Under the pieces are notes generated by a model. The model ran no database searches and was not told the origin of the DNA. It saw nothing but the letters and a program-made list of their open reading frames with translations. From a virus (taxonomy: Duplodnaviria > Heunggongvirae > Uroviricota > Caudoviricetes), in IMG/VR virus record IMGVR_UViG_2923292180_000001: a DNA stretch of 24,956 nucleotides; one strand, 5' to 3'. The translations under genes and the position numbers were made by a program. This document shows, piece by piece, positions 1 to 21,649 of the stretch; within the stretch, counting starts at the first letter, position 1; every line of letters begins with the position of its first letter.

Positions 1-19
1 CTATTTGATAAATATTAAA

Positions 20-1315
20 TTAATTTTTCATTGCTTCGTTATGGGGCATGGTTGGGGCAAACTCGCTTAACTGTGTATTTAACAAAGCTACCTGTGCATT
101 ATTGTTTTCAGACATCCATTTTCCGTATACCTGAAATACCATTTGCGCATCTGCATGGCCCATCTGGTTTGCTATAAATGCCGGGTTAGCACCAGCTGTC
201 AGCGACCAGCAGGCATAAGTATGTCTCGACTGATATGATTTTCGATGGCGGAGTCCGGCACGTTTTATCGCTGCGTCCCACATCTGCCTTATTGAGTCAA
301 CGGTAAAATGGTCACCATAATTTTTTACTCTCGCTGACACTTCAGGTTGAAAAACAAAGGTGCATTTTTGTTTTTCTGTTCTGCCATACTCTCTGAGGTG
401 AACATCAATGATATGCTCTTTGCTCAGTCTCGTTAATGTCATCTGACTCCGGAGAGCGTCGATTGCTGGCTTAATAAGATGAATGACCCGATTGGTTCCC
501 GCCTGTGTTTTTGGTACCGTGAAACGGTCTTTTGCTAAATTTCTCCTGATCATCATTGTTCCATTTTTCAGATCTATGTCCTCCCATCCAAGTGCACACA
601 GCTCACCAGGGCGAACTCCAGTATAAACAGAAACACACCATAAATTTTTTGCTTGCTGATTTCTGCACGCATCGATAAGACGGATAAATTCTTCCCGCGA
701 AAGAGGATCCGGAATGGTTCTTGATTCCTTTAATGGCGAGATCCCCTTAAACGGATTATCTGCCAGGTAACCGTTATCAACACCAAACTGGAACACGGCG
801 TTAAGATTTGTCATGTAATTATTTACAGTTACAGCCGATCTCCCTGGTTGTGTAACAATATAGTTACTTTTGGGGATCTGGTATCCAGTCAGTAACTCTT
901 TACGAACCTCCAGTAATTTTTCTTTATTAATCGATGAGGCAAGATTTTTTTCACCGATTATGCTCAGGATATTTTTGATGACGGCACGGTATGTGTTGAG
1001 TGATGTTTTGGCGACTTCAGTTTCTTTCAGTGCCAGAAATTTTTCAGCCAGTTCTTTTATGGTTAAATCTTGTCGGGCCTCACCAAATTTTTCCAGATTG
1101 CGTGAGGAGGGAAACTGTTTTGCATAGTCGAAAACACCAGTTTTTATTGCGTAACAAACAGAGGAGCGTAGTTCACCTGCAACGCGCCTGTTTTTTGCTG
1201 TGTCAGGAACCCCCAGATTTTCCCTGACTCTTACGTCTTTATAAACAAACCAGATACGTAATTTCCCTCCATGGTTTTCCACGCCTGTCGGATATTTCAT
1301 TTCAACTTCTCTCAT
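20..1315 (-). CDS. Phage-type tyrosine integrase (site-specific recombinase), apparently full length
   Basis: 431-aa ORF at the prophage edge; C-terminal region has the R...H..R...Y pattern of tyrosine recombinases (..SRHTYACW..HADAQMVFQVYGKWM..); an excisionase-like gene lies immediately upstream on the same strand. Confidence 0.85.
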   Translation of the reverse strand: MREVEMKYPTGVENHGGKLRIWFVYKDVRVRENLGVPDTAKNRRVAGELRSSVCYAIKTGVFDYAKQFPSSRNLEKFGEARQDLTIKELAEKFLALKETEVAKTSLNTYRAVIKNILSIIGEKNLASSINKEKLLEVRKELLTGYQIPKSNYIVTQPGRSAVTVNNYMTNLNAVFQFGVDNGYLADNPFKGISPLKESRTIPDPLSREEFIRLIDACRNQQAKNLWCVSVYTGVRPGELCALGWEDIDLKNGTMMIRRNLAKDRFTVPKTQAGTNRVIHLIKPAIDALRSQMTLTRLSKEHIIDVHLREYGRTEKQKCTFVFQPEVSARVKNYGDHFTVDSIRQMWDAAIKRAGLRHRKSYQSRHTYACWSLTAGANPAFIANQMGHADAQMVFQVYGKWMSENNNAQVALLNTQLSEFAPTMPHNEAMKN

Positions 1316-1334
1316 TAGTTAGTGTGGCTTTTAG

Positions 1335-1586
1335 TCAAGTAAGATGACGTCTTGGTCTCGCTGATGCCTGGCGCTCAATCCAGCGATCAATTTCTTCCAG
1401 GTTGTAAAAGCATGGACTGTTATCCCATGGCATACCGTCATGAGCGACATGCTTATATTCCCTTCCTTCCATAAACGATTTTTCCCGGGCCTTTTTTAAC
1501 GTACCTTTTTTTATTCCTTTCAGCGCAATTAACTGCTCTTCGGATACCCATTTGCCGGGAGAGACAATCATGATTACTTCGCTCAT
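1335..1586 (-). CDS. Excisionase-like small DNA-binding protein
   Basis: 83-aa ORF 20 bp upstream of the integrase, same strand; basic; resembles lambdoid-prophage Xis-like proteins from memory (MSEVIMIV..GREYKHV..IDRWI). Confidence 0.6.
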   Translation of the reverse strand: MSEVIMIVSPGKWVSEEQLIALKGIKKGTLKKAREKSFMEGREYKHVAHDGMPWDNSPCFYNLEEIDRWIERQASARPRRHLT

Positions 1587-1658
1587 CGATTTCTTTATCT
1601 CTTACATCAGACGAGCGCCGGTTGCAGAATACCAGTCACAACCGGCGACAGTTGAACA

Positions 1659-3692
1659 TTAAGAATCAGCCTGACTCGGGATCAGTTTTTGCCAGATAAC
1701 TGAAACGTATTTTGCCTGGTAACGGGCGTCATCAAGTGCATTATGGCGCTCACCTTCGAATGGAATAGCCGTTCTGGCATCGAAGTCTATGGCTTTCCCC
1801 AGCTCAACGATTGTGCGTACATCGCGATCGTTGTAGTAACGCCACGGGCAGGGGATCCCCTGCCGTTCGTATGAACGGCGCAAAATCGTGTTGTCGAAGT
1901 TGGCTCCATTTCCCCAAACCTGAACAAAAAATTCACCGGAGTTTTCGTCGATAAATTCTCGCAATTGTAACAGTGCATCATCTAACGGGATTTCATCGGT
2001 CATAATGGCAGATTGCGCTTCGCGTGATTGCTTAAGCCACCATTTAATGGTGTCCCGATCAATGACTCCGCCAGCAGTTTCCAGATCGATAGTCTTACTA
2101 AATTCCGGTCCCATATCTCCGGTTTGCGGATCGAAAAATATTGCACCTATTGAGATGATCGGGGCATCAGGATTTTTTCCCATGGTTTCAAGGTCGATCA
2201 TTAGATGGTCACACGTCCTGCTGGTGGATGTGATTTCGTGATGACCGTTCACCTTAATTGGGTGATCTGCCGTCTCGCCAGTTTCATTATCGCTATTGTG
2301 ATGCTGATTGCCGCCAGTGTTCTCCTTGTGTGGATGTTCAGCGCCTTCCATTTCCTCCGGATCATCTTCCTGAACTTCAACCTGATACTCTTCATCGAAT
2401 GTTTCTTGGTATGTTGCGTCGCCCATCACCGCGCCACAATCAGGGCAGTTGCCGCCGCCGGTCTGACCGCAGGCGGTGCAGACTTTTTCCACTTCCTGTT
2501 GCGCTACTGGTTCAGGCTGTTTCGTTTCTGGCTCGTTTTGTAACGCATTTGGACTGTTTTGTTCCGCTTTTTGGTAGTTCCGTTCCGATTCATGCTGGTT
2601 CTGGTTCACAGAATCGCGGGTCTGGAGCCCCTTAACCCATTTCGGATCATTCGGGTCACTAATCCCTTCAACAAATTCACCACGTGATGCAGCAAGCAAC
2701 TTATCGGCGTCAGGCTGGCTGATATTGGCTGCCTGCATAATTTTGTTTACTTCGTCAGCGGTAACTTTTATCGGCTCTGGTTGTTCTGAATCTTCAGCGG
2801 TATCTACATTTTGCGGTAAGCCCGTGTATGTGCCATTTTTTCGGGCAAAATATTCTTCTTTTGTGATTTCAGTGGCGCCAGCAGCCAGTGCCTTATCCAG
2901 ACCAGAGAGTTTGTTTGCGCGACCGTATTTTTCTCCGTCCTTATCTGCGAAGAGGAAATAGAACGGCCCCTCACGCTCTACAGATGGTTCAGCTTCCGGC
3001 GCGGTTTCATTTTTTGGGATATCAGATACCTCAGTTTCCACTGCATCAGTTTGTGTTTCTGATGACTGGAGAACATCAACAGTGCCCAGGTCTGTTTCTT
3101 CATTCTCAAACACGCCCTTTGTCGTCAGGTATTCGCAGATATATTTGTTCAGTGCTACGGGATCTTTGTGAATGTCGATCGGACGCTCACGGACAAGGCC
3201 AAAAATAGTTTGGCGGTCGTAGCGAAGGGCATCAGGCTGTTTGCGCATTGATGCCGAGATACGCTTCCAGTCTTCGCGGTCGTTGTCGATAACTTCTTTT
3301 TTTGCCCAGCGATGGATGCTGCCGTCAATGTTTCCGGCATCCACATCACTAGGCCAGAGAGCGTAGGCCAGTTCGTCATCCAGTGTTTTCCATGTCTGCT
3401 TGTATTCGCGATGAATGGCAGCAATGACCGGGCTGATTTTTCCTGTTGAATTTTCAGTGTACTGTTGATTGGCTCTGGCGCGGGCGAGATCAACAACAGA
3501 CGTGTATTTTCCGGTTTCCTTGCGTTCACCTTCGCGACGTTTTTTCCAGATGCGCATCTCTGCCTGAATTTCGGGCCATTTAGCACCAGGAATACATTTA
3601 TGCTTAACCCACCCAATGGCGTGCAACTTAAGCTCCGGATACGGGTTATTCCCCTCTGAACAGGCGCGTAAGGACTGGCAAAACGCCCGCAA
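1659..3692 (-). CDS. RecE-like (exodeoxyribonuclease VIII-like) protein with C-terminal DEDDh (DnaQ-like) 3'-5' exonuclease domain
   Basis: 677-aa ORF. C-terminal region carries Exo I (MIDLETMG), Exo II (WGNGANFDNTIL) and Exo III (HNALDDARYQ) motifs; central acidic His-rich low-complexity linker; CxxC-x8-CxxC zinc ribbon (CTACGQTGGGNCPDCG); middle segment (DKLLAASRGEFVEGISDPNDPKWVKG) resembles RecE from memory. Confidence 0.75.
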   Translation of the reverse strand: MRAFCQSLRACSEGNNPYPELKLHAIGWVKHKCIPGAKWPEIQAEMRIWKKRREGERKETGKYTSVVDLARARANQQYTENSTGKISPVIAAIHREYKQTWKTLDDELAYALWPSDVDAGNIDGSIHRWAKKEVIDNDREDWKRISASMRKQPDALRYDRQTIFGLVRERPIDIHKDPVALNKYICEYLTTKGVFENEETDLGTVDVLQSSETQTDAVETEVSDIPKNETAPEAEPSVEREGPFYFLFADKDGEKYGRANKLSGLDKALAAGATEITKEEYFARKNGTYTGLPQNVDTAEDSEQPEPIKVTADEVNKIMQAANISQPDADKLLAASRGEFVEGISDPNDPKWVKGLQTRDSVNQNQHESERNYQKAEQNSPNALQNEPETKQPEPVAQQEVEKVCTACGQTGGGNCPDCGAVMGDATYQETFDEEYQVEVQEDDPEEMEGAEHPHKENTGGNQHHNSDNETGETADHPIKVNGHHEITSTSRTCDHLMIDLETMGKNPDAPIISIGAIFFDPQTGDMGPEFSKTIDLETAGGVIDRDTIKWWLKQSREAQSAIMTDEIPLDDALLQLREFIDENSGEFFVQVWGNGANFDNTILRRSYERQGIPCPWRYYNDRDVRTIVELGKAIDFDARTAIPFEGERHNALDDARYQAKYVSVIWQKLIPSQADS

Positions 3693-3711
3693 AAAACTCT
3701 CGAGGGCAAAG

Positions 3712-3882
3712 GTGAAGAAACCTGCTGTGGTTGATCCGGACCTTATCTGGTCATCACCTGACGGAGAAATACGTCGCTACGACAGTCGCCTAAACATAAT
3801 CTGTCGCGAGTGCCGGAAGAGCGAAGTTATGCAGCGCATACTGGCTTTCTATCAGGGTAATTTTCAGGACGTGGCGCAGTGA
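3712..3882 (+). CDS. Small hypothetical protein (about 56 aa from GTG at 3712), coupled to the downstream methyltransferase remnant
   Basis: Open frame 3616..3882; GTG at 3712 is the first start that does not overlap the divergent exonuclease gene; its stop TGA (3880-3882) overlaps the GTG start of the next ORF (GTGA). Start choice uncertain. Confidence 0.3.
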   Translation: MKKPAVVDPDLIWSSPDGEIRRYDSRLNIICRECRKSEVMQRILAFYQGNFQDVAQ

Positions 3883-4325
3883 GTGCACCGGCAACCATTC
3901 TTGATATGTGCTGTGGCAGCCGCATGTTCTGGTTCGATAAGTCTGACGAACGGGCGATATTCAGCGATATCAGAAAAGAAGGATACACATTACGCAATGG
4001 GAGACGCTTGATTATCAGCCCTGACATTATCGCAGATTTTCGTGCATTATCATTTGCAGACGCATCTTTTTCGATGGTTGTATTAGACCCTCCGCATCTT
4101 GAGAGTGTTGGTGATAACGCCTGGATGGGAAAGAAATATGGACGGCTGAATAAAGATGCCTGGCGTGATGATTCGCGACAGAGATTTAAAGAAGCCTTTC
4201 GGGTGTTGAGGCCGCACGGCGTTCTGATTTTTTAATGGAATGAAACGCAAATACCGGTAAGCCAGATTCTGGCACTGACAGACAGAAAACCTGTTATCTG
4301 TCAACGAACAGGGAAAAAACGATAA
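3879..4325 (+). pseudogene. SAM-dependent DNA methyltransferase remnant (DPPH motif) broken by an in-frame TAA
   Basis: 118-aa ORF with a glycine-rich SAM-binding-like segment (LDMCCGS) and catalytic-type motif VVLDPPHL; in-frame TAA at 4233-4235 is followed by 29 further sense codons (WNETQIPVSQILALTDRKPVICQRTGKKR) ending at 4325. Confidence 0.55.
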
Positions 4326-4497
4326 AACCCACTGGATTATTTTTATGAAAGAGGCATCCAGTGAGTAGATTCGTAAGGCTACAGATACGTATATCTGAAT
4401 AATTAAATTCAGTTCTGTAAATAAAATTTAATCCTTAACCGGATGGATTTCTGCACCCTCAGAACATCAGGAGGCCGCCCGAAAGGGCGGTAGTGAA

Positions 4498-4680
4498 ATG
4501 CGAAAGTTCAAAATTATTATTGAAACGGGAATAGCTGGTGGAGATTTTGAGGATGTATTCGAAGTGGACGATGACGCAACACCTGAGGAAATTCATGACG
4601 GAGCATAAGAAATTTTCTTTAACTACTGCAATTACTCATACCACGAAATAAAAGACGATGAGGAAGAACAAAGTGGCTGA
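4498..4680 (+). pseudogene. Short ORF broken by an in-frame TAA (35 codons, TAA, 23 codons); possible decayed prophage gene
   Basis: ATG 4498; MRKFKIIIETGIAGGDFEDVFEVDDDATPEEIHDGA, TAA at 4606-4608, then EIFFNYCNYSYHEIKDDEEEQSG and TGA at 4678-4680; preceded by AGGAGG plus an 18-nt GAAA-loop hairpin. Confidence 0.3.
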
Positions 4681-4845
4681 TTTTTGTTAAGCTAAATATA
4701 ACATCAGTTTTGAAGAGCGGGATGAACTATTAATGGACTATGGTGAGTTACGCGGTGGAAGTGCTGCTGATGTCGAATCCTAGCGTGATGACTATGAAGC
4801 GGGAAAAACTCCGGTCGAAGCATATTGTGATGAGTGGGGCGATGA

Positions 4846-5133
4846 ATGAGCGAGATTAATTATCAGGAAGGGCATGAAACGGCGGGGCAAGCAAAACCAG
4901 TGGCATGGCGATATCGCTACGTGAAAAAAGGCGTTACGGACTTTCAGGGGAAGTAGTGGTCTGGTGACTGGAAATATGTACCGAAAAAAGAGGATTGTAA
5001 CGACAGGCCGAACTATCAAATTCAGGCCTTATTCACTGCCTCACCAGTCCCAGTTACATCAGAAGAACTGGTTAAAGCTGTGCACTTTTATGAACAACTA
5101 AAACGCGAAAATCCACCAACATCCGGCAACTAG
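4846..5133 (+). pseudogene. Hypothetical prophage ORF (95 codons) broken by a single in-frame amber codon
   Basis: ATG 4846; 36 sense codons (MSEINYQEGHETAGQAKPVAWRYRYVKKGVTDFQGK), TAG at 4954-4956, then 58 sense codons in the same frame (WSGDWKYVPKKEDCNDRPNYQIQALF...ENPPTSGN) to TAG at 5131-5133. Confidence 0.4.
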
Positions 5134-5387
5134 ATTAATGGATTAACTATGTCGGTTAAACGACCAGCCAACTGAAAAAGCGGAAACCTGATTACAGGTT
5201 GCCAGATAAGGCAATGAGCTACCTGGCGCGGAACGGACTGATAAGTATGGGGAATGTTTTACGATGAACCTTTAGACTAAAGAGTTTGTAACGCTATGTA
5301 AGTGATTTTTTCTGGTTTAGATATTTATATGTCCGGCCAAATTGAGGTGTGTTTAAATGTAATTGCACATTGATTGTAGGAGGAATA

Positions 5388-5567
5388 ATGAAAAACGCAT
5401 TGCAGTTTTTGTTTGTTGCGTTCTGGTTGTTCGCATCATGTATGCCCATCATCTTCACAGCAAGGTATATGGAAAAAGTTGATGTTTTGATATTAATATT
5501 TGGATATATAAATGCCCTTTTTTTAGGGGTGTTCATGGCGGTCATGTGCATTGAATACTGGCGGTAA
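5388..5567 (+). CDS. Small hydrophobic protein (59 aa, two predicted transmembrane segments) in an AT-rich islet
   Basis: ATG 5388 preceded by SD-like TAGGAGGA at 5377-5384; product MKNALQFLFVAFWLFASCMPIIFTARYMEKVDVLILIFGYINALFLGVFMAVMCIEYWR; surrounding DNA is markedly AT-rich. Confidence 0.45.
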   Translation: MKNALQFLFVAFWLFASCMPIIFTARYMEKVDVLILIFGYINALFLGVFMAVMCIEYWR

Positions 5568-5840
5568 ATACAGCGAACTCCATTGGTTTAGTTGGATATT
5601 TACTGTGCTGGACAAAAACGGTTTGCGGGGAAATCTTAGTTAAGTAGAATGACTGCGGGTGCTTGAGGCTATCTGCCTCGGGCATGGACACCAACGGCAG
5701 ATAGAGAAAAGCCCCAGTTAACATTACGCGTCCTGCAAGACGCTTAACATTAATCTGAGGCCAATTTCATGCTAGACACATGTAGGTTAGCCTCTTACGT
5801 GCCGAAAGGCACGGAGAAGCAGGCTATTGTTAACACCAAG

Positions 5841-7458
5841 CTGTAATGTCCCCTTTGAACCATTCTAAAATGTCCCCAGACAATTCTCTGGGGGATTTTT
5901 CATGATCAAAGAGACTGTTACGATGAGTCATAAGGAACTCCACCGACTTCAGATTATTCAGGAACAAGCTGCGGCACGCATTGGCATTTCTATTCGGCAG
6001 GTTAAACGTCTGGTGCAACGGTATAGAAATGAAGGGCCTTCTGGTCTGGTTTCCCACCGACGTGGAAAGCGTCCTAATAATTCCTTTTCTACTGAATTCA
6101 GAGCAACAGTAATTTCACTCCTCAAAGGCCGTTACGCTGATTTTGGACCTACGTTTGCGTGCGAAAAATTGCGCGAGATACACGGTTTATCTTTATCCGT
6201 TGAAACTCTCAGAAAGTGGATGATAGAAGAGGGGTTATGGCGTGAACGCCGTCGTAAAATTGCCCGTATATATCAACGCCGCATGCGACGACCATCTTAC
6301 GGTGAACTGATCCAGATTGATGGCTCACCTCATGACTGGTTTGAAAATCGAGGCCCCAGATGTACACTGATCGTTTTCATTGATGATGCCACCAGTGCGT
6401 TGATGGCGTTGCGTTTTGTGCCTGCTGAAACAACCCGGGCTTACATGGAAACCCTCCGGGGTTACCTTAATGATCATGGCGTACCGCTCGCTCTCTACTC
6501 TGATAGACACAGTATATTCAGGGTAAATAACCCAGAGCGGGAAGGTGAGCTGACCCAGTTCACTCGTGCGATAAAGACACTGGGCATCGAGCCAATCCAT
6601 GCCAACAGCCCGCAGGCAAAAGGGCGGGTAGAGCGCGCCAATCAGACACTACAGGACAGGCTGGTCAAAGAAATGCGGCTTCAGAATATCAGTGATATTG
6701 AAACAGCAAATGCATGGTTGCCGACCTTTATTGAAGCCTATAACAACCGGTTCGCTACGTCGCCTCGTACTACTGATAATGCTCATCTTGATGTGCACCA
6801 TTCTGAAGAGGAACTGGGTTATATCTTCAGCCTACAGGCGAAGCGCGTTCTGTCTAAAAATCTCACTTTCCAGTACAAAAGCAGTGCGTTTCAGGTACGC
6901 AGTGAGGGCCGGGGATATCGACTTAGGCATTCGGTTGTTACTGTATGCGAGAACTTTGACGGTGAAATTAACGTTCTGTATGACGGGAAAGCGCTGGGCT
7001 GGGAAAAGTATGTTGATGGCCCGGAGCCTATACCACTGGATGATGAAAAGAGTGTCCATGAACGAGTGGATAATGCCCGTATTGATTTACGCTCAAAATA
7101 CTATGTTAAACCTAAAGCTGACCATCCCTGGCTTACGCGCCGAACGCAAAGTCATCAGCAAGTTAAGCCCCCGAAGTTACCTAAAAAGAAGCCTGATCCC
7201 GATAAAAAAGATTGAAACCAAGATCGATTCGGTTGAGTGCATATCCATTCATAGGGTAGATTCTTAAGTCGCGTTTCTGGTGTTCATTTTCGGGTGGTTT
7301 GTTACTTGTTTTACCGGGGATATGCCAGAAACGCGCTGAGTCAGTCTGGGCGGTGCGCGTAATGAGGCGTTATGGTAAATAGCCTATGCTAATGTCCGCT
7401 AAGAGCAAGAAGCGGAAGTTGGCAGTTTTGTGGACTGTCCCCACAAAAGTGACTACAG
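5841..7458 (+). mobile_element. Insertion sequence carrying the ISNCY-like transposase; boundaries approximate
   Basis: Single transposase ORF flanked by non-coding arms with short palindromes (CCCCAGA..TCTGGGG near 5875-5893; TTTGTGG..CCACAAA near 7427-7449). No convincing terminal inverted repeats or target duplication could be defined by eye. Confidence 0.3.
5902..7215 (+). CDS. DDE (rve-type) transposase, ISNCY/IS1202-like
   Basis: 437-aa ORF with N-terminal helix-turn-helix (ISIRQVKRLVQRY) and integrase-core signature (..DGSPHDWF.., ..YSDRHSIF.., ..SPQAKGRVERANQTLQD..). Family assignment is from memory. Confidence 0.75.
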   Translation: MIKETVTMSHKELHRLQIIQEQAAARIGISIRQVKRLVQRYRNEGPSGLVSHRRGKRPNNSFSTEFRATVISLLKGRYADFGPTFACEKLREIHGLSLSVETLRKWMIEEGLWRERRRKIARIYQRRMRRPSYGELIQIDGSPHDWFENRGPRCTLIVFIDDATSALMALRFVPAETTRAYMETLRGYLNDHGVPLALYSDRHSIFRVNNPEREGELTQFTRAIKTLGIEPIHANSPQAKGRVERANQTLQDRLVKEMRLQNISDIETANAWLPTFIEAYNNRFATSPRTTDNAHLDVHHSEEELGYIFSLQAKRVLSKNLTFQYKSSAFQVRSEGRGYRLRHSVVTVCENFDGEINVLYDGKALGWEKYVDGPEPIPLDDEKSVHERVDNARIDLRSKYYVKPKADHPWLTRRTQSHQQVKPPKLPKKKPDPDKKD

Positions 7459-7610
7459 AAATAGTTGCAATTCATAATTGATCATGGGTTGTCAGTTAAA
7501 CTCGTGGCGATTTAAATAGACTAATTGGGAGTGCGTCCATTACTTATATCTTGTAATGTTAACTATCAGAAATGATACAAAGATAATATGTCTTTAAAGA
7601 AAAGGCTGAT

Positions 7611-7637
7611 GGCGAAAAGTGGCCCGATGAGGGCCAC
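7611..7637 (-). terminator. Rho-independent terminator downstream of flxA
   Basis: Perfect 7-bp stem GTGGCCC/GGGCCAC (7619-7625, 7631-7637) with 5-nt loop, followed on the minus-strand transcript by UUUUCGCC; 15 bp beyond the flxA stop. Confidence 0.55.
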
Positions 7638-7651
7638 AATACGGCTGTCAC

Positions 7652-7984
7652 TTAGACGTAAATATCAATGGTGCCAGCGGTATTTGTATCGTCTTTTTTC
7701 TCTTCTTTTTTATCAGGCTGAACTGTCGCGTCTTCATTCTTTTTCTCTGCCTGCTGCCTTAACAACTGCTCCAGTTGAGCCCAGAGGCTTTCAATTTGCT
7801 TCTGTACCAATGCAGCCATTTCTTTTTTCTGCTGTGTCGTCATCCCCTCTTCCGATGAGATTTTCCCAAGCTTTTCAGTCAGCACCTGAATTTGTCTTGT
7901 GATTTTGGCTATTTCTGATGTTCCTTCCGGGGCGGAGTTGTTTGAAATAACGGTTGAGGTATTTCCCTGAATTGTGACAGACAT
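7652..7984 (-). CDS. flxA: FlxA (sigma-28-dependent prophage protein)
   Basis: 110-aa product MSVTIQGNTSTVISNNSAPEG...TIDIYV recognised as FlxA; a canonical sigma-28 promoter lies immediately upstream. Confidence 0.9.
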   Translation of the reverse strand: MSVTIQGNTSTVISNNSAPEGTSEIAKITRQIQVLTEKLGKISSEEGMTTQQKKEMAALVQKQIESLWAQLEQLLRQQAEKKNEDATVQPDKKEEKKDDTNTAGTIDIYV

Positions 7985-8006
7985 AGATTTCTCCTTTTAA
8001 AAAAGC

Positions 8007-8033
8007 ACTATCGGCATGCACAAAAAAATCTTT
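8007..8033 (-). promoter_or_regulatory. Sigma-28 (FliA) promoter of flxA
   Basis: Minus-strand sequence TAAAGATT-N11-GCCGATAG (-35 at 8026-8033, -10 at 8007-8014) matches the FliA consensus TAAAGTTT-N11-GCCGATAA with correct spacing; sits 23-49 bp upstream of the flxA ATG. Confidence 0.75.
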
Positions 8034-8186
8034 AATCGTATTTCTTGTGTCATTAATTGTTTGATGTTCAGATTGTTTTCCTCGCGGGCTGGCGCGCCTC
8101 AGAAAGTAAAGCTTGTTGACAGGGGTAAACGTTCGGCAATAATTTTCTGCCGCATGCGGGTGTTGCATAAAACGTGTTACGTTCCT

Positions 8187-8492
8187 TTATCGACAGGTCA
8201 GGTCACCGCTCACCCGCCGACGAGAAAGCAACACTGACATGCTAAAGCAAAAAATAGATGAATAAGTTGAGTTGTGCATATGTAGCCTGACCGTCACAAA
8301 GTATATGGTGTCTGTACCAGTAAGATGATGGCCGGACTCTTTAAAAACGAGCTGACCTGCACAATACAGGATGGACTTAGCAATGGCTGCTCCTGGCACA
8401 AAGCGGACAGTGATCACCGTTCTTACGACTACTTTCTGACTTCCTTCGTGACTTGCCCTAAGCATGTTGTAGTGCGATACTTGTAATGACAT
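8187..8492 (-). CDS. ydfV: Hypothetical prophage protein YdfV-like (101 aa)
   Basis: ORF of the length and position expected between flxA and relB in Qin; its start codon overlaps the relB operator, so the true start and expression are uncertain. Confidence 0.45.
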   Translation of the reverse strand: MSLQVSHYNMLRASHEGSQKVVVRTVITVRFVPGAAIAKSILYCAGQLVFKESGHHLTGTDTIYFVTVRLHMHNSTYSSIFCFSMSVLLSRRRVSGDLTCR

Positions 8493-8504
8493 TTGTAATT
8501 ACAA
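8481..8504 (+). promoter_or_regulatory. relBE operator (relO-like inverted hexad repeats)
   Basis: TTGTAATgacaTTTGTAATTACAA immediately upstream of the relB SD and ATG (8517); the TTGTAAT/ATTACAA repeats are those of the RelB-RelE operator. Confidence 0.6.
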
Positions 8505-8516
8505 GAGGTGTAAGAC

Positions 8517-8756
8517 ATGGGTAGCATTAACCTGCGTATTGACGATGAACTTAAAGCGCGTTCTTACGCCGCGCTTGAAAAAATGGGTGTAACTCCTTCT
8601 GAAGCGCTTCGTCTCATGCTCGAGTATATCGCTGACAATGAACGCTTGCCGTTCAAACAGACACTCCTGAGTGATGAAGATGCTGAACTTGTGGAGATAG
8701 TGAAAGAACGGCTTCGTAATCCTAAGCCAGTACGTGTGACGCTGGATGAACTCTGA
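8517..8756 (+). CDS. relB: RelB antitoxin
   Basis: 79-aa product MGSINLRIDDELKARSYAALEKMGVTPSEALRLMLEYIADNERLPF... recognised as RelB; stop overlaps relE start (TGATG). Confidence 0.95.
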   Translation: MGSINLRIDDELKARSYAALEKMGVTPSEALRLMLEYIADNERLPFKQTLLSDEDAELVEIVKERLRNPKPVRVTLDEL

Positions 8757-9043
8757 TGGCGTATTTTCTGGATTTTGACGAGCGGGCACTAAAGGAATGG
8801 CGAAAGCTGGGCTCGACGGTACGTGAACAGTTGAAAAAGAAGCTGGTTGAAGTACTTGAGTCACCCCGGATTGAAGCAAACAAGCTCCGTGGTATGCCTG
8901 ATTGTTACAAGATTAAGCTCCGGTCTTCAGGCTATCGCCTTGTATACCAGGTTATAGACGAGAAAGTTGTCGTTTTCGTGATTTCTGTTGGGAAAAGAGA
9001 ACGCTCGGAAGTATATAGCGAGGCGGTCAAACGCATTCTCTGA
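8756..9043 (+). CDS. relE: RelE mRNA interferase toxin
   Basis: 95-aa product MAYFLDFDERALKEWRKLGSTVREQLKKKLVEVLESPRIEANKLRG... recognised as RelE; translationally coupled to relB. Confidence 0.95.
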   Translation: MAYFLDFDERALKEWRKLGSTVREQLKKKLVEVLESPRIEANKLRGMPDCYKIKLRSSGYRLVYQVIDEKVVVFVISVGKRERSEVYSEAVKRIL

Positions 9044-9114
9044 ACCAAAGCATGACATCTCTGTTTCGCACCGAAGGTGACACTTCTGCTTTGCGTTGAC
9101 AGGAGAAGCAGGCT

Positions 9115-9270
9115 ATGAAGCAGCAAAAGGCGATGTTAATCGCCCTGATCGTCATCTGTTTAACCGTCATAGTGACGGCACTGGTAACGAGGAAAGACCT
9201 CTGCGAGGTACGAATCCGAACCGGCCAGACGGAGGTCGCTGTCTTCACAGCTTACGAACCTGAGGAGTAA
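9115..9270 (+). CDS. hokD: Hok-family membrane toxin HokD (RelF); below the ORF-track size cutoff
   Basis: 51-aa ORF MKQQKAMLIALIVICLTVIVTALVTRKDLCEVRIRTGQTEVAVFTAYEPEE: single transmembrane segment plus conserved Hok C-terminus; immediately downstream of relE. Confidence 0.85.
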   Translation: MKQQKAMLIALIVICLTVIVTALVTRKDLCEVRIRTGQTEVAVFTAYEPEE

Positions 9271-12534: not shown

Positions 12535-12684
12535 AAAAATTCCTTAATACTGATAACTTGGCGCACTATACACACGTTCCTGAAGAAAGCTATAGTTTTT
12601 TGATGGGGTTGAAGATGGCTGGATGTCTAAAATAAACATTGCTTCATATGTTCAACTATGCGTTAATGATTGCGTCGGTTTGAA

Positions 12685-12834
12685 GAACAGACGATATACG
12701 AAGTAGTTTACTAAAGCAGTTCTCATTTCAGGTGTTATTCACTTATTCCTTCTTTGAGTCTCTCCAATTAAGTACGAAGTCGTTTCTGTTATGCAAACCA
12801 TTTATGCCGAAAGGCTCAAGTTAAGGAATGTAGA
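12685..12834 (+). promoter_or_regulatory. cspB 5' untranslated leader with cold-box-like element and cspA-type upstream box
   Basis: AACAGACGATATACGAAGTAGTTTACTAAAGCAG resembles the cspA cold box (TGACGTACAGACCATTAAAGCAG); GCCGAAAGGC lies just upstream of the SD (AAGGAATG) before the cspB ATG, as in cspA. Recalled from memory, not aligned. Confidence 0.4.
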
Positions 12835-13050
12835 ATGTCAAATAAAATGACTGGTTTAGTAAAATGGTTTAACGCTGATAAAGGTTTCGGCTTTATTTCT
12901 CCTGTTGATGGTAGTAAAGATGTGTTTGTGCATTTTTCTGCGATTCAGAATGATAATTATCGAACCTTATTTGAAGGTCAAAAGGTTACCTTCTCTATAG
13001 AGAGTGGTGCTAAAGGTCCTGCAGCAGCAAATGTCATCATTACTGATTAA
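12835..13050 (+). CDS. cspB: Cold-shock protein CspB
   Basis: 71-aa product [71 protein letters not shown] with RNP1/RNP2 motifs. Confidence 0.95.
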
Positions 13051-13331
13051 AATTCATCGCTCGTCTGTATACGATAACGAAGAAGGCTGATGCCTGAGTA
13101 GAGATACGGACAGAGTAGTGAATATTGGATCTCTTTAATAAAAAGTAAGGAGGTCCAATACATGAAACAATGGCTAGCATATTTGGCAAAATCTTAATCA
13201 GGAAAAGTATGCTAACCATTGTGGTGAAGTGCAGGTTTGCTGCATGAATAGTTTTACAGCAGAAGCTAACTGCTGGCATGGCAAAACAAAGTGCGTAAGT
13301 GGATGACTCCCACAAAAAGCACCACAATCTC

Positions 13332-13803: not shown

Positions 13804-14019
13804 ATGAAATCAATGGATAAGTTAACAACAGGTGTTGCCTATGGCACATCGGCGGGTAATGCTGGTTTCTGGGCATTGCAGTTACTCGATAAAGTAACTC
13901 CGTCACAGTGGGCTGCAATCGGTGTGCTGGGTAGCCTGGTTTTTGGCCTGCTGACGTATCTGACAAATCTTTATTTCAAGATTAAAGAAGACAGGCGTAA
14001 GGCTGCGAGAGGAGAGTAA
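13804..14019 (+). CDS. essQ: Class II holin (phage 21 S21 pinholin type) with dual-start motif
   Basis: 71 aa from ATG 13804 ([10 protein letters not shown]..., second Met at codon 4 as in holin/antiholin dual starts); two transmembrane segments and charged C-terminus ([13 protein letters not shown]). Confidence 0.85.
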
Positions 14020-14023
14020 TCCA

Positions 14024-14331
14024 ATGACTCAAGACTATGAACTGGTTGTGAAAGGAGTCCGTAATTTTGAGAATAAAGTTACGGTAACTGTAGCCTTACA
14101 GGACAAAGAACGCTTTGACGGTGAAATTTTTGACCTGGATGTCGCCATGGACCGTGTTGAAGGAGCTGCGCTGGAGTTTTATGAGGCAGCAGCCAGAAGG
14201 AGCGTCCGGCAAGTCTTCCTGGAAGTAGCAGAAAAATTGTCAGAAAAAGTTGAGTCTTATCTGCAGCATCAGTACTCCTTTAAGATTGAAAATCCTGCCA
14301 ATAAGCACGAGCGTCCTCATCATAAATATCT

Positions 14332-14335
<4 letters not shown>
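14024..14335 (+). CDS. ydfR: YdfR (DUF1327 prophage protein, 103 aa)
   Basis: Sits between holin and endolysin; stop overlaps the endolysin start (ATGA). Confidence 0.75.
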
Positions 14336-15359
<1,024 letters not shown>

Positions 15360-15721
15360 GGTAATATTAAATCGGAACATTTACATCGCGGAATGTAAAA
15401 TTTAAATAAAAAGGACTCTTCCATGAGCCAAAATTCCTGAAATCTTAAGGGTAAGATAAAAGGTCTTAATCAGAATGACACGTTTTATTAATAAATAAAG
15501 CCATTCTTTCATTGCTGTGTTTTTCTTTACAAAAGTAATCCTTGCTATGGGTGGTTAATCATGCGTTAATGGTGTTCTGGTTTGTTACAAATTTATCTGA
15601 AGCAGTCATTGTTATAATTTTATTATTTGTACCTCTTGAGATTTCCTTGTTGGTTTTTCTCTCTGATATTTTTTTTCGGACCATTCTGCCCAAGGGCTAA
15701 TTTCTTCAAAAGGTAATAATT

Positions 15722-15934
15722 ATGTCTAACAAAATGACTGGTTTAGTGAAATGGTTTAACCCTGAAAAAGGTTTTGGTTTCATCACGCCGAAAGATGGCA
15801 GCAAAGATGTGTTTGTCCATTTCTCAGCAATTCAGAGCAACGATTTCAAAACATTAACTGAGAATCAGGAAGTTGAATTTGGTATTGAGAACGGACCTAA
15901 AGGTCCTGCCGCTGTTCATGTAGTGGCGCTTTGA
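15722..15934 (+). CDS. cspI: Cold-shock protein CspI
   Basis: 70-aa product [70 protein letters not shown]; long AT-rich leader upstream. Confidence 0.95.
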
Positions 15935-16138
15935 GGTAGACAATATTACAAACCATATTCACTTTAGATGCCCGTGTTGTCATGGTTCCCAGTATAGAAC
16001 ATCATCTTTTGATGTTTCTGACATGAATCCTTTCGGGGCAAAATGTATCTTTTGTAAATCAATGATGATTACATTTGATAATATTTCACAATACTTAAAT
16101 GCCAGCCGTCTGTCGTTGGATTTAAAAAAGTGAAAATG

Positions 16139-21074: not shown

Positions 21075-21649
21075 TGGCATTCAGAATGAGTGAACAACCA
21101 CGGACCATAAAAATTTATAATCTGCTGGCCGGAACTAATGAATTTATTGGTGAAGGTGACGCATATATTCCGCCTCATACAGGTCTGCCAGCAAACAGTA
21201 CCGATATTGCACCGCCAGATATTCCGGCAGGCTTCGTGGCTGTTTTCAACAGTGATGAGGCATCGTGGCATCTCGTTGAAGATCATCGGGGTAAAACGGT
21301 TTATGACGTGGCTTCCGGCGACGCGTTATTTATTTCTGAACTCGGTCCGTTACCGGAAAATGTTACCTGGTTATCGCCGGGAGGGGAATATCAGAAGTGG
21401 AACGGCACAGCCTGGGTGAAGGATACGGAAGCAGAAAAACTGTTCCGGATCCGGGAGGCGGAAGAAACAAAAAACAGCCTGATGCAGATAGCCAGTGAGC
21501 ATATAGCGCCGCTTCAGGATGCTGTGGATCTGGAGATCGCAACGGAGGAAGAAACCTTGTTGCTGGAAGCCTGGAAAAAGTATCGGGTGTTGCTGAACCG
21601 TGTTGATACATCAACTGCACCGGATATTGAATGGCCAGCACTGCCGTAG
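21074..21649 (+). CDS. tfaQ: Tail fibre assembly protein Tfa
   Basis: 191-aa product [71 protein letters not shown]... is nearly identical to lambda Tfa from memory. Confidence 0.9.

Follow-up and report, generated by a model that had tools for sequence, protein, structure and literature searches.

Small membrane proteins encoded by prophages often prove to function in the exclusion of phages, the control of lysis or the physiology of the host. The class II holins and pinholins (such as S21 of phage 21) are proteins of ~60-70 amino acids having two transmembrane (TM) segments, both termini in the cytoplasm (N-in/C-in) and helix faces of glycine and other small residues. GhoT, a type V toxin, is a small membrane toxin that also has two TM segments, and Cor (phages phi80 and N15) and Llp (phage T5) are small phage lipoproteins for superinfection exclusion, the soluble mature domains of which reach the outer membrane. 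Here we describe ORF59, an open reading frame (ORF) encoding 59 residues within a 24,956-nt stretch of Caudoviricetes DNA (IMG/VR record IMGVR_UViG_2923292180_000001), the whole of which is called the window below. Sequence comparisons argue that ORF59 is very probably a genuine gene, the product of which is a tiny membrane protein. The parts of ORF59 and of its leader are as follows.

5388 to 5567, plus strand: ORF59 coding sequence, ATG at 5388-5390 and TAA at 5565-5567, encoding the 59-residue hydrophobic product MKNALQFLFVAFWLFASCMPIIFTARYMEKVDVLILIFGYINALFLGVFMAVMCIEYWR
5377 to 5384, plus strand: Shine-Dalgarno (SD) sequence TAGGAGGA, AGGAGG core at 5378-5383, 4 nt 5' of the ATG
5290 to 5387, plus strand: AT-rich non-coding leader, GC (guanine plus cytosine) content 32.7%
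5400 to 5456, plus strand: hydrophobic segment 1 (residues ~5-23), a TM helix 1 or lipoprotein signal peptide that holds the invariant S17-C18-x-P20
5427 to 5441, plus strand: lipobox-like motif L-F-A-S-C (Cys18), equivalent to I-V-I-S-C in the paralog clade
5484 to 5552, plus strand: hydrophobic segment 2 (residues ~33-55), with the conserved F38-G39-x-x-N42-A43-L44-x-x-G47-V48-F49, followed by the invariant C-terminus I55-E56-x-W58-R59

The principal evidence for the gene comes from a paralog. An exhaustive HMMER scan uncovered a second E. coli clade (P0037/P0042; clade B, the window ORF belonging to clade A), the product of which is also exactly 59 residues long. The ORFs of the two clades align end to end without a gap at 41% amino acid and 59% nucleotide identity, and 23 residues are invariant between them (M1, L5, L8, W13, S17, C18, P20, I21, I22, T24, L36, F38, G39, N42, A43, L44, G47, V48, F49, I55, E56, W58 and R59). 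The nucleotide differences number 25, 17 and 31 at codon positions 1, 2 and 3, respectively, and the Nei-Gojobori method (NG86) gives a nonsynonymous rate (dN) of 0.45 and a saturated synonymous rate (dS) of 2.3, for a ratio (omega) of ~0.19. Upon translation of the nucleotide alignment in all six frames the ORF59 frame gave 24 identities, a BLOSUM62 score of 153 and no stops, whereas the remaining five frames gave 13-18 identities, scores of -6 to 62 and 2-12 stops. A score of 153 was never reached in 20,000 column permutations, nor in 20,000 random-mutation simulations, and both clade sequences were open in just 0.07% of the column permutations. The flanks of the two clades cannot be aligned past ~25 nt upstream and ~45 nt downstream of the ORF. 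Given conservation specific to the ORF59 frame together with a broken antisense frame, we conclude that the plus-strand frame from ATG 5388 has been maintained as a protein. An initial annotation, made from the letters of the window alone, had taken conservation of the DNA without that of the ORF as the observation that would speak against the gene; what we found is a paralog that retains all 59 codons, gapless, at the above divergence.

We favor ATG 5388 as the ORF59 start codon. Many GenBank records use a 72-residue version beginning at GTG 5349, to which ATG 5388 is preferred because of the paralog alignment and the SD sequence. An AGGAGG sequence having a start codon 3-10 nt downstream occurs three times on the two strands of the 25-kb window, and ORF59 is the sole case that opens a sizeable ORF. 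The SD variant A5381G (TAGGGGGA) is a common allele. The product has a grand average of hydropathy of 1.27 and a hydropathy profile composed of two hydrophobic peaks with almost no soluble sequence, whereas its AlphaFold2 model contains helices at residues 2-24 and 30-58 with a mean predicted local distance difference test (pLDDT) score of 72. The charges along the chain are +1/+2 at the N-terminus and 0/-2 in the loop, and the tail past helix 2 is EYWR, with a net charge of 0. Hence, the ATG at 5388, the strong SD sequence and the two hydrophobic helices put forward in the initial annotation are borne out by sequence, hydropathy and AlphaFold2.

Clade A is present at ≥95% nucleotide identity in 1569 of 5426 complete E. 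coli genomes (~29%). Clade B is found in 1043 complete genomes (~19%) and at least 1000 contigs, its copies being ≥95% identical to one another, and occupies what is left of a decayed prophage at the ttcA (Rac) attachment site, in the order integrase fragment, ORF, sitD fragments, uspF (L091, 6001-6180; L090, 5001-5180). In L090 the clade B ORF is directly 3' of cdtABC, and among the nine full-length RefSeq matches displayed for this clade no PGAP (Prokaryotic Genome Annotation Pipeline) feature underlies the ORF. A '53%-identical' homolog in the GTDB representative E. coli ECMA0423 (L087, 2887-3266) was rejected as a third clade. At the DNA level it is 91% identical, 13 gaps being opened within 388 bp, and the copy looks like an indel-ridden assembly resulting from long-read homopolymer error.

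Intactness and polymorphism were scored in an IMG/VR sample of 119 loci retrieved by a flanking DNA pattern, and thus unbiased as to the ORF, of which 117 were evaluable. The intact 59-residue product was encoded by 112 of the 117 copies, three copies were disrupted and two had SD variants that the script left untranslated. The insertion sequence IS1 has inserted repeatedly in or near ORF59 in various strains (equivalents of window 5100-5800, H1-H8), and chimeric predicted proteins of both clades (P0038, P0048) end in GDAANLLI, which is encoded by the IS1 end.

The ORF had been described as unannotated, and this holds for RefSeq/PGAP: an annotation under ORF59 is absent from 60 of 60 sampled RefSeq genomes and from PK6, which is identical to window 1-9000. 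GenBank records label the ORF 'hypothetical protein'. Neither clade matched Pfam, NCBIfam, PHROG or PADLOC (for ORF59 the Pfam and NCBIfam searches were null at E ≤1), a PDB profile search gave no match, and Foldseek comparison of the AlphaFold model with BFVD gave no match at E ≤0.001, only generic helical hairpins. DUF4212 was considered for the paralog and rejected as sub-threshold (E 0.07, 13.9 bits versus a cut-off of 30). The HMMER scan covered 1.84 billion representatives and a profile search covered 5.8 billion proteins; these two and a scan of metagenomes returned only the two Escherichia/Shigella clades. A full-text literature search with peptide fragments found no paper containing the ORF59 sequence, and papers on Hok diversity and on hokW-sokW make no mention of an upstream ORF. 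The toxin, holin and exclusion functions suggested in the initial annotation thus receive no homology support from Pfam, NCBIfam, PHROG, PADLOC, PDB or BFVD, and ORF59 is best filed among the small membrane proteins of prophages, a broad class, as a new uncharacterized member.

The window is a Qin-type cryptic prophage adjoining rspB in a non-K-12 E. coli, and positions 1-9000 are 100% identical to several genomes, PK6 among them. The prophage-borne setting claimed for ORF59 was therefore correct. The K-12 Qin setting assumed with it was not: K-12 MG1655 matches window 3364-3642 and 7031 onward but has deleted 3643-7030, and hence ORF59 is absent from K-12, not merely unannotated there. The window prophage has its own deletion (about 3633-3650), where an exonuclease pseudogene is fused to a DUF977 fragment and dicB-dicF-dicA-dicC-O have been lost, early promoters included; K-12 Qin retains dicB-dicF-dicA-dicC-O, and thus the internal deletions of the two prophages differ. 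The window genes just 5' of ORF59 are pseudogenes. In intact relatives the order is cI-cro-cII-O-DUF977-small ORFs-ORF59-hok-ydfU-rusA-Q, which places ORF59 in the nin-like region, with the replication genes on one side and Q on the other, in the orientation of the early-right operon. Inducible, complete phages also carry ORF59.

The initial annotation had seen in 5290-5570 an AT-rich islet that suggested a separately acquired moron. The islet stands, as its GC content is 35.2% versus 43.4% (5000-5289) and 47.2% (5571-5860) in the flanks and 45.5% in the window, although this value is at the 7th percentile among 281-bp windows and ~10 other stretches of the window are equally or more AT-rich. 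Separate acquisition is not supported. The GC content of ORF59 is 51% at third codon positions and 34% and 29% at first and second positions, respectively, and T makes up 53% of the second positions. As the deficit is in positions 1 and 2, the AT-richness of the coding sequence is attributed to codons for hydrophobic residues (Phe/Ile/Leu/Val/Met), and by this measure it appears to be neither a foreign-DNA signature nor a sign of separate acquisition. A scan of both strands of 4900-5950 found no sigma-70-like promoter, although the scan is insensitive, being also blank for the expected hok promoter, and no TAnnnT hexamer was seen by eye in 5284-5387. There is no terminator-like hairpin between the ORF59 stop (5567) and the hok leader (5657). 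With no promoter or terminator detected the moron architecture is unproven. At the same place ORF59 is found in only some related phages, others having unrelated upstream DNA. ORF59 resembles a nin-region gene, oriented with the early-right operon, more than it does a moron.

The best overall explanation, which we consider probable though far from assured, is that ORF59 is the gene for a 59-residue inner-membrane protein, carried as an accessory gene in the nin-like region of Qin-type lambdoid phages. Based on the charges given above, the protein would have an N-in/C-in topology. The positive N-terminus would be cytoplasmic, segment 1 (~5-23) would run outward across the membrane, the nine-residue loop TARYMEKVD would be periplasmic, and helix 2 (~33-55) would cross back to put E-Y-W-R in the cytoplasm. 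The putative functional surface consists of S17-C18-x-P20, the FGxxNALxxGVF of helix 2 (a small-xxx-small face with a buried Asn) and the IExWR tail, conserved residues that suggest a helix-packing or oligomerizing hairpin that acts within the membrane rather than through a soluble domain. Expression would most probably be by read-through from the phage early promoters with no promoter of its own. This defective prophage has lost the early promoters, and pseudogenes lie upstream; here ORF59 may be poorly expressed or silent. Our best guess as to role is a non-essential membrane-acting accessory function, for example phage exclusion, or an influence on membrane integrity or on the timing of lysis together with Hok.

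Several findings weigh against this explanation. The role is inferred from size, topology and neighborhood only, no homolog of known function emerged from the family, structure and large protein searches, and the scan and hairpin search described above detected neither a promoter nor a terminator. As the family is confined to two Escherichia/Shigella clades, the comparative evidence hangs on one deep split. Copies that diverge by only 1-4% would be largely intact regardless of function, and IS1 or frameshifts occasionally destroy ORF59 without obvious consequence. Moreover, the point polymorphisms are 10 nonsynonymous to 0 synonymous in clade A (143 nonsynonymous and 34 synonymous sites) and 3 to 0 in clade B. 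The clade A ratio fits neutrality (P ~0.12) and clashes with an omega of 0.2 (P ~0.0004). Within-clade dN/dS is uninformative or contrary, earlier samples having been biased by protein-based retrieval, and these ratios leave present-day purifying selection on ORF59 unproven.

Of the alternatives the one that survives best, a tenable possibility though not a likely one, is that ORF59 is a micro-lipoprotein. Residues 1-17 would be a signal peptide and signal peptidase II would cut before Cys18 to leave a mature peptide of 42 residues, which would carry an acylated Cys at the periplasmic face and a single TM helix (33-55) and could block receptors or DNA entry. The PROSITE-type lipobox rule is {DERK}(6)-[LIVMFWSTAG](2)-[LIVMFYSTAGCQ]-[AGS]-C with the Cys at 15-35 and a K or R in the first seven residues. 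Both LFVAFWLFASC of clade A and LCISIWIVISC of clade B conform to it, as do only 5-7% of segment 1 shuffles. S17 and C18 are invariant across clades that are 41% identical, C18 is the sole conserved cysteine, and the remainder of the protein would be oriented as in the hairpin model. However, a chance rate of 5-7% is not compelling, and the lipobox counts once in the two clades because it is shared by descent. Moreover, the residues past Cys18 (MPIIF or VPIIL) are hydrophobic where a polar linker is usual, and the AlphaFold helix 2-24 is uninterrupted.

It is unlikely, a little more so than the lipoprotein, that ORF59 is a relic, a former gene now unexpressed or unselected in cryptic prophages and open only because its copies are young. 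The 10:0 and 3:0 ratios, the ≥95% identity of all copies within a clade, the deleted early promoters and upstream pseudogenes of the window, the blank (insensitive) promoter scan and the recurrent knock-outs by IS1 and frameshift all agree with a relic. Against it, variable sites are sparser in ORF59 (6.1%) than in the adjacent non-coding DNA (16% upstream and 8.6% downstream), and most replacements are conservative (A/V, V/I, I/M, M/I, L/I, Y/H), the exceptions being two singleton V-to-G changes and M53T, which is found in 9 of 113 copies. Three changes (I37M, Y40H and Y57C) are toward the residue of the other clade, and ORF59 is also carried by inducible, complete phages. Relaxed and diversifying selection cannot be separated in these polymorphism data. 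Diversifying selection on a retained scaffold is hinted at by the wholly nonsynonymous substitutions, by the much faster divergence of ORF59 (59% nucleotide identity) than of the adjacent hok remnant (80%) and by the strict conservation of the lipobox and IExWR tail. A family of rapidly evolving micro-lipoproteins acting at the inner membrane against competing phages or with Hok could be imagined on this basis, but we regard it as improbable.

We also think it quite unlikely that ORF59 encodes a membrane-damaging toxin or holin-like peptide restrained by a putative antisense RNA or by silence in the lysogen. The size and extreme hydrophobicity of the product resemble those of small membrane toxins, the SD sequence is very strong, the ORF has a type I toxin locus as its prophage neighbor, and two TM segments are found in class II holins. 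However, there were no matches to toxin, holin or defense families in Pfam, NCBIfam, PHROGs or PADLOC, and the protein has neither a charged C-terminal tail (EYWR, net 0) nor a dual start. ORF59 is also outside the lysis cassette; the window ORFs of matching sizes at ~14,000-15,400 are taken to be the lysis genes from their collinearity with K-12 essQ-ydfR-rrrQ. No antisense promoter (in the insensitive scan) or RNA family overlaps ORF59, the sole Rfam match nearby being the downstream hok/sok leader. Finally, the paralog is intact in 1043 genomes within a decayed remnant where no partner gene is left, a persistence that would be surprising for a potent toxin left unguarded.

The proposal that ORF59 is a functional partner of hok/sok, a Hok modulator or immunity factor in a three-part cassette, calls for a description of the downstream DNA, the features of which are as follows.

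5568 to 5656, plus strand: spacer from the ORF59 stop to the hok mRNA start, with no terminator inside
5657 to 5828, plus strand: hok/sok 5' leader (Rfam RF01794, 104 bits) with a Mok-like start remnant at 5769, cut at the hok SD/ATG
5828 to 9101, plus strand: IS1202-family (ISNCY) transposon-like insertion of 3274 bp, with a transposase at 5902-7215 and the cargo flxA, ydfV, relB and relE
9115 to 9270, plus strand: hokD coding sequence, the other half of the hok locus originally 3' of ORF59

The hok leader begins 90 nt past the ORF59 stop. The two halves of the hok locus are separated in the window, where the leader ends at 5827 and the remainder (hokD) resumes at 9102; the leader at 5657-5828 is the 'missing' regulatory half of K-12 hokD. 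The hok halves are contiguous in intact phages (e.g., L004, 5270-5595), and a complete mok-hok gene comes after ORF59 in the intact phage vB_EcoS-640R1. The clade B ORF is followed, 55 nt past its stop, by a dead hok fragment 80% identical to the hok coding sequence. As hok adjoins the ORF in both clades, the adjacency is ancestral.

A partnership with hok/sok would account for the position of ORF59 directly 5' of the hok locus in both deeply diverged clades with no terminator between them, and tiny hydrophobic ORFs unrelated to ORF59 lie 5' of the same hok leader in other phages. These were seen in L305, L315 and L324 (IMG/VR), which lack ORF59 and have small hydrophobic ORFs ~100-250 nt 5' of the leader, among them two related 34-residue single-TM peptides (...LMDRLGN and ...LMDRLSD) and one 108-residue multi-TM protein. 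They may represent a recurring pattern or a coincidence of nin regions rich in small ORFs. However, we consider the partnership very improbable. The adjacency in two clades is a single evolutionary observation, and ORF59 has persisted both where hok is broken (clade B) and where it is disconnected (the window). Moreover, the mosaic boundary of the hok/sok module is at 5610-5657 and excludes ORF59. A hok-leader pattern matched 120 IMG/VR contigs, of which 95 were newly fetched and the rest had been fetched earlier via the ORF59-flank pattern. By our tally ORF59 was present in about 25 of the 120 contigs and in none of the 88 evaluable newly fetched ones. In the contigs that lack it, homology to the window starts at 5610-5657 and the upstream sequences fall into 34 clusters. 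The evidence says that the hok/sok module moves independently of ORF59, which lies outside the module.

Barely credible is the last alternative, that the real gene is an 85-codon ORF on the opposite strand (5551 to 5294), which is longer than ORF59, is annotated in three phage records ('hypothetical protein', 'hornerin') and has a terminator-like hairpin downstream (minus strand, 5200-5185), but which lacks an SD sequence, has two stops in the paralog clade (score 62 versus 153), has no overlapping minus-strand counterpart of ≥40 residues at the paralog in L090 and has polymorphisms that are non-conservative in its frame (T>I, Y>C, R>M, T>P), the hairpin itself being one of two terminator-like sites versus 0.8 expected, which is not significant. 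The longest open frame of 5280-5620 is the antisense frame that contains the 85-codon ORF (97 codons from stop to stop). It is exceeded by 1.8% of shuffles, a value that is hence no test of the 73-codon frame of ORF59.

The insertion that splits hok has a 15-bp exact direct repeat (GGAGAAGCAGGCTAT) at its edges (5813-5827 and 9102-9116), imperfect terminal inverted repeats (22 of 30 positions matching) that begin with TGT, a duplicated subterminal motif (5835-5853 and 5859-5877) and a transposase of 437 residues with helix-turn-helix and rve domains. All of this agrees with the description of the IS1202 family in PMC10132070. Integration of relBE into hokD was noted in PMC6379469, citing Ramisetty and Santhosh 2016; a description of the transposon structure around relBE-hokD was not found in PMC6379469. 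As the insertion is exactly at the hok SD/ATG, co-transcription of relBE and hokD would be a by-product. The transposase at 5902-7215 is an uninterrupted reading frame of 437 codons, which PGAP annotates as a C-terminally truncated pseudogene (5923-6945) plus 'protein YdfW' (7066-7215). K-12 ydfW is the last 49 codons of the transposase, a remnant of the K-12 deletion. Elsewhere in the window Rfam matches cspA-type thermoregulator 5' untranslated regions at 12674-13066 (158.8 bits) and 15576-15961 (112.8 bits) and the small RNA IS009 at 21417-21615 (221.5 bits). Just past the first cspA-type leader, in an AT-rich stretch (13148-13197), a perfect AGGAGG lies 8 nt 5' of ATG 13162, which opens an ORF of only 11 codons.

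If the ORF59 protein is made, a conserved gene for a small membrane protein is missing from the standard RefSeq annotation of ~29% of complete E. coli genomes, and its paralog from that of another 19%, and ORF59 becomes one more uncharacterized prophage-encoded small membrane protein. Its fixed place beside hok/sok makes it readily testable with existing Hok tools. The present evidence changes no established concept.

Of the known systems the Hok/Gef type I toxins, to which the hokD-type neighbor belongs, are like ORF59 in being very small, hydrophobic, prophage-borne inner-membrane proteins of the same accessory region. However, there is no sequence similarity, and Hok has one TM segment plus a periplasmic tail whereas ORF59 has two hydrophobic segments. 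ORF59 is also outside the hok module, and no mok-type leader ORF, fold-back mRNA elements or Sok-like antisense RNA were detected for it. GhoT matches ORF59 in length (57-59 residues) and in its two-helix hydrophobic architecture, but ORF59 has no adjacent antitoxin gene and no Pfam or NCBIfam match at E ≤1. With Cor and Llp ORF59 shares small size, prophage encoding and an N-terminal lipobox-like motif with a conserved cysteine, whereas its mature part would be only 42 residues, mostly TM helix. Sequence and fold matches to these proteins are lacking: no PHROG match to SieB, Imm, Cor or Llp was found, and no BFVD fold match at E ≤0.001. With the class II holins ORF59 has in common its size, two TM segments, predicted N-in/C-in topology and small-residue helix faces, although it lacks their charged tail and dual-start motif, has no PHROG or Pfam holin match and is ~9 kb from the lysis genes. 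In contrast to the lambdoid nin-region ORFs, ORF59 forms an orphan family without a PHROG and is a predicted membrane protein, yet it shares with them its position between the replication genes and Q, its early-right orientation and its presence/absence mosaicism.

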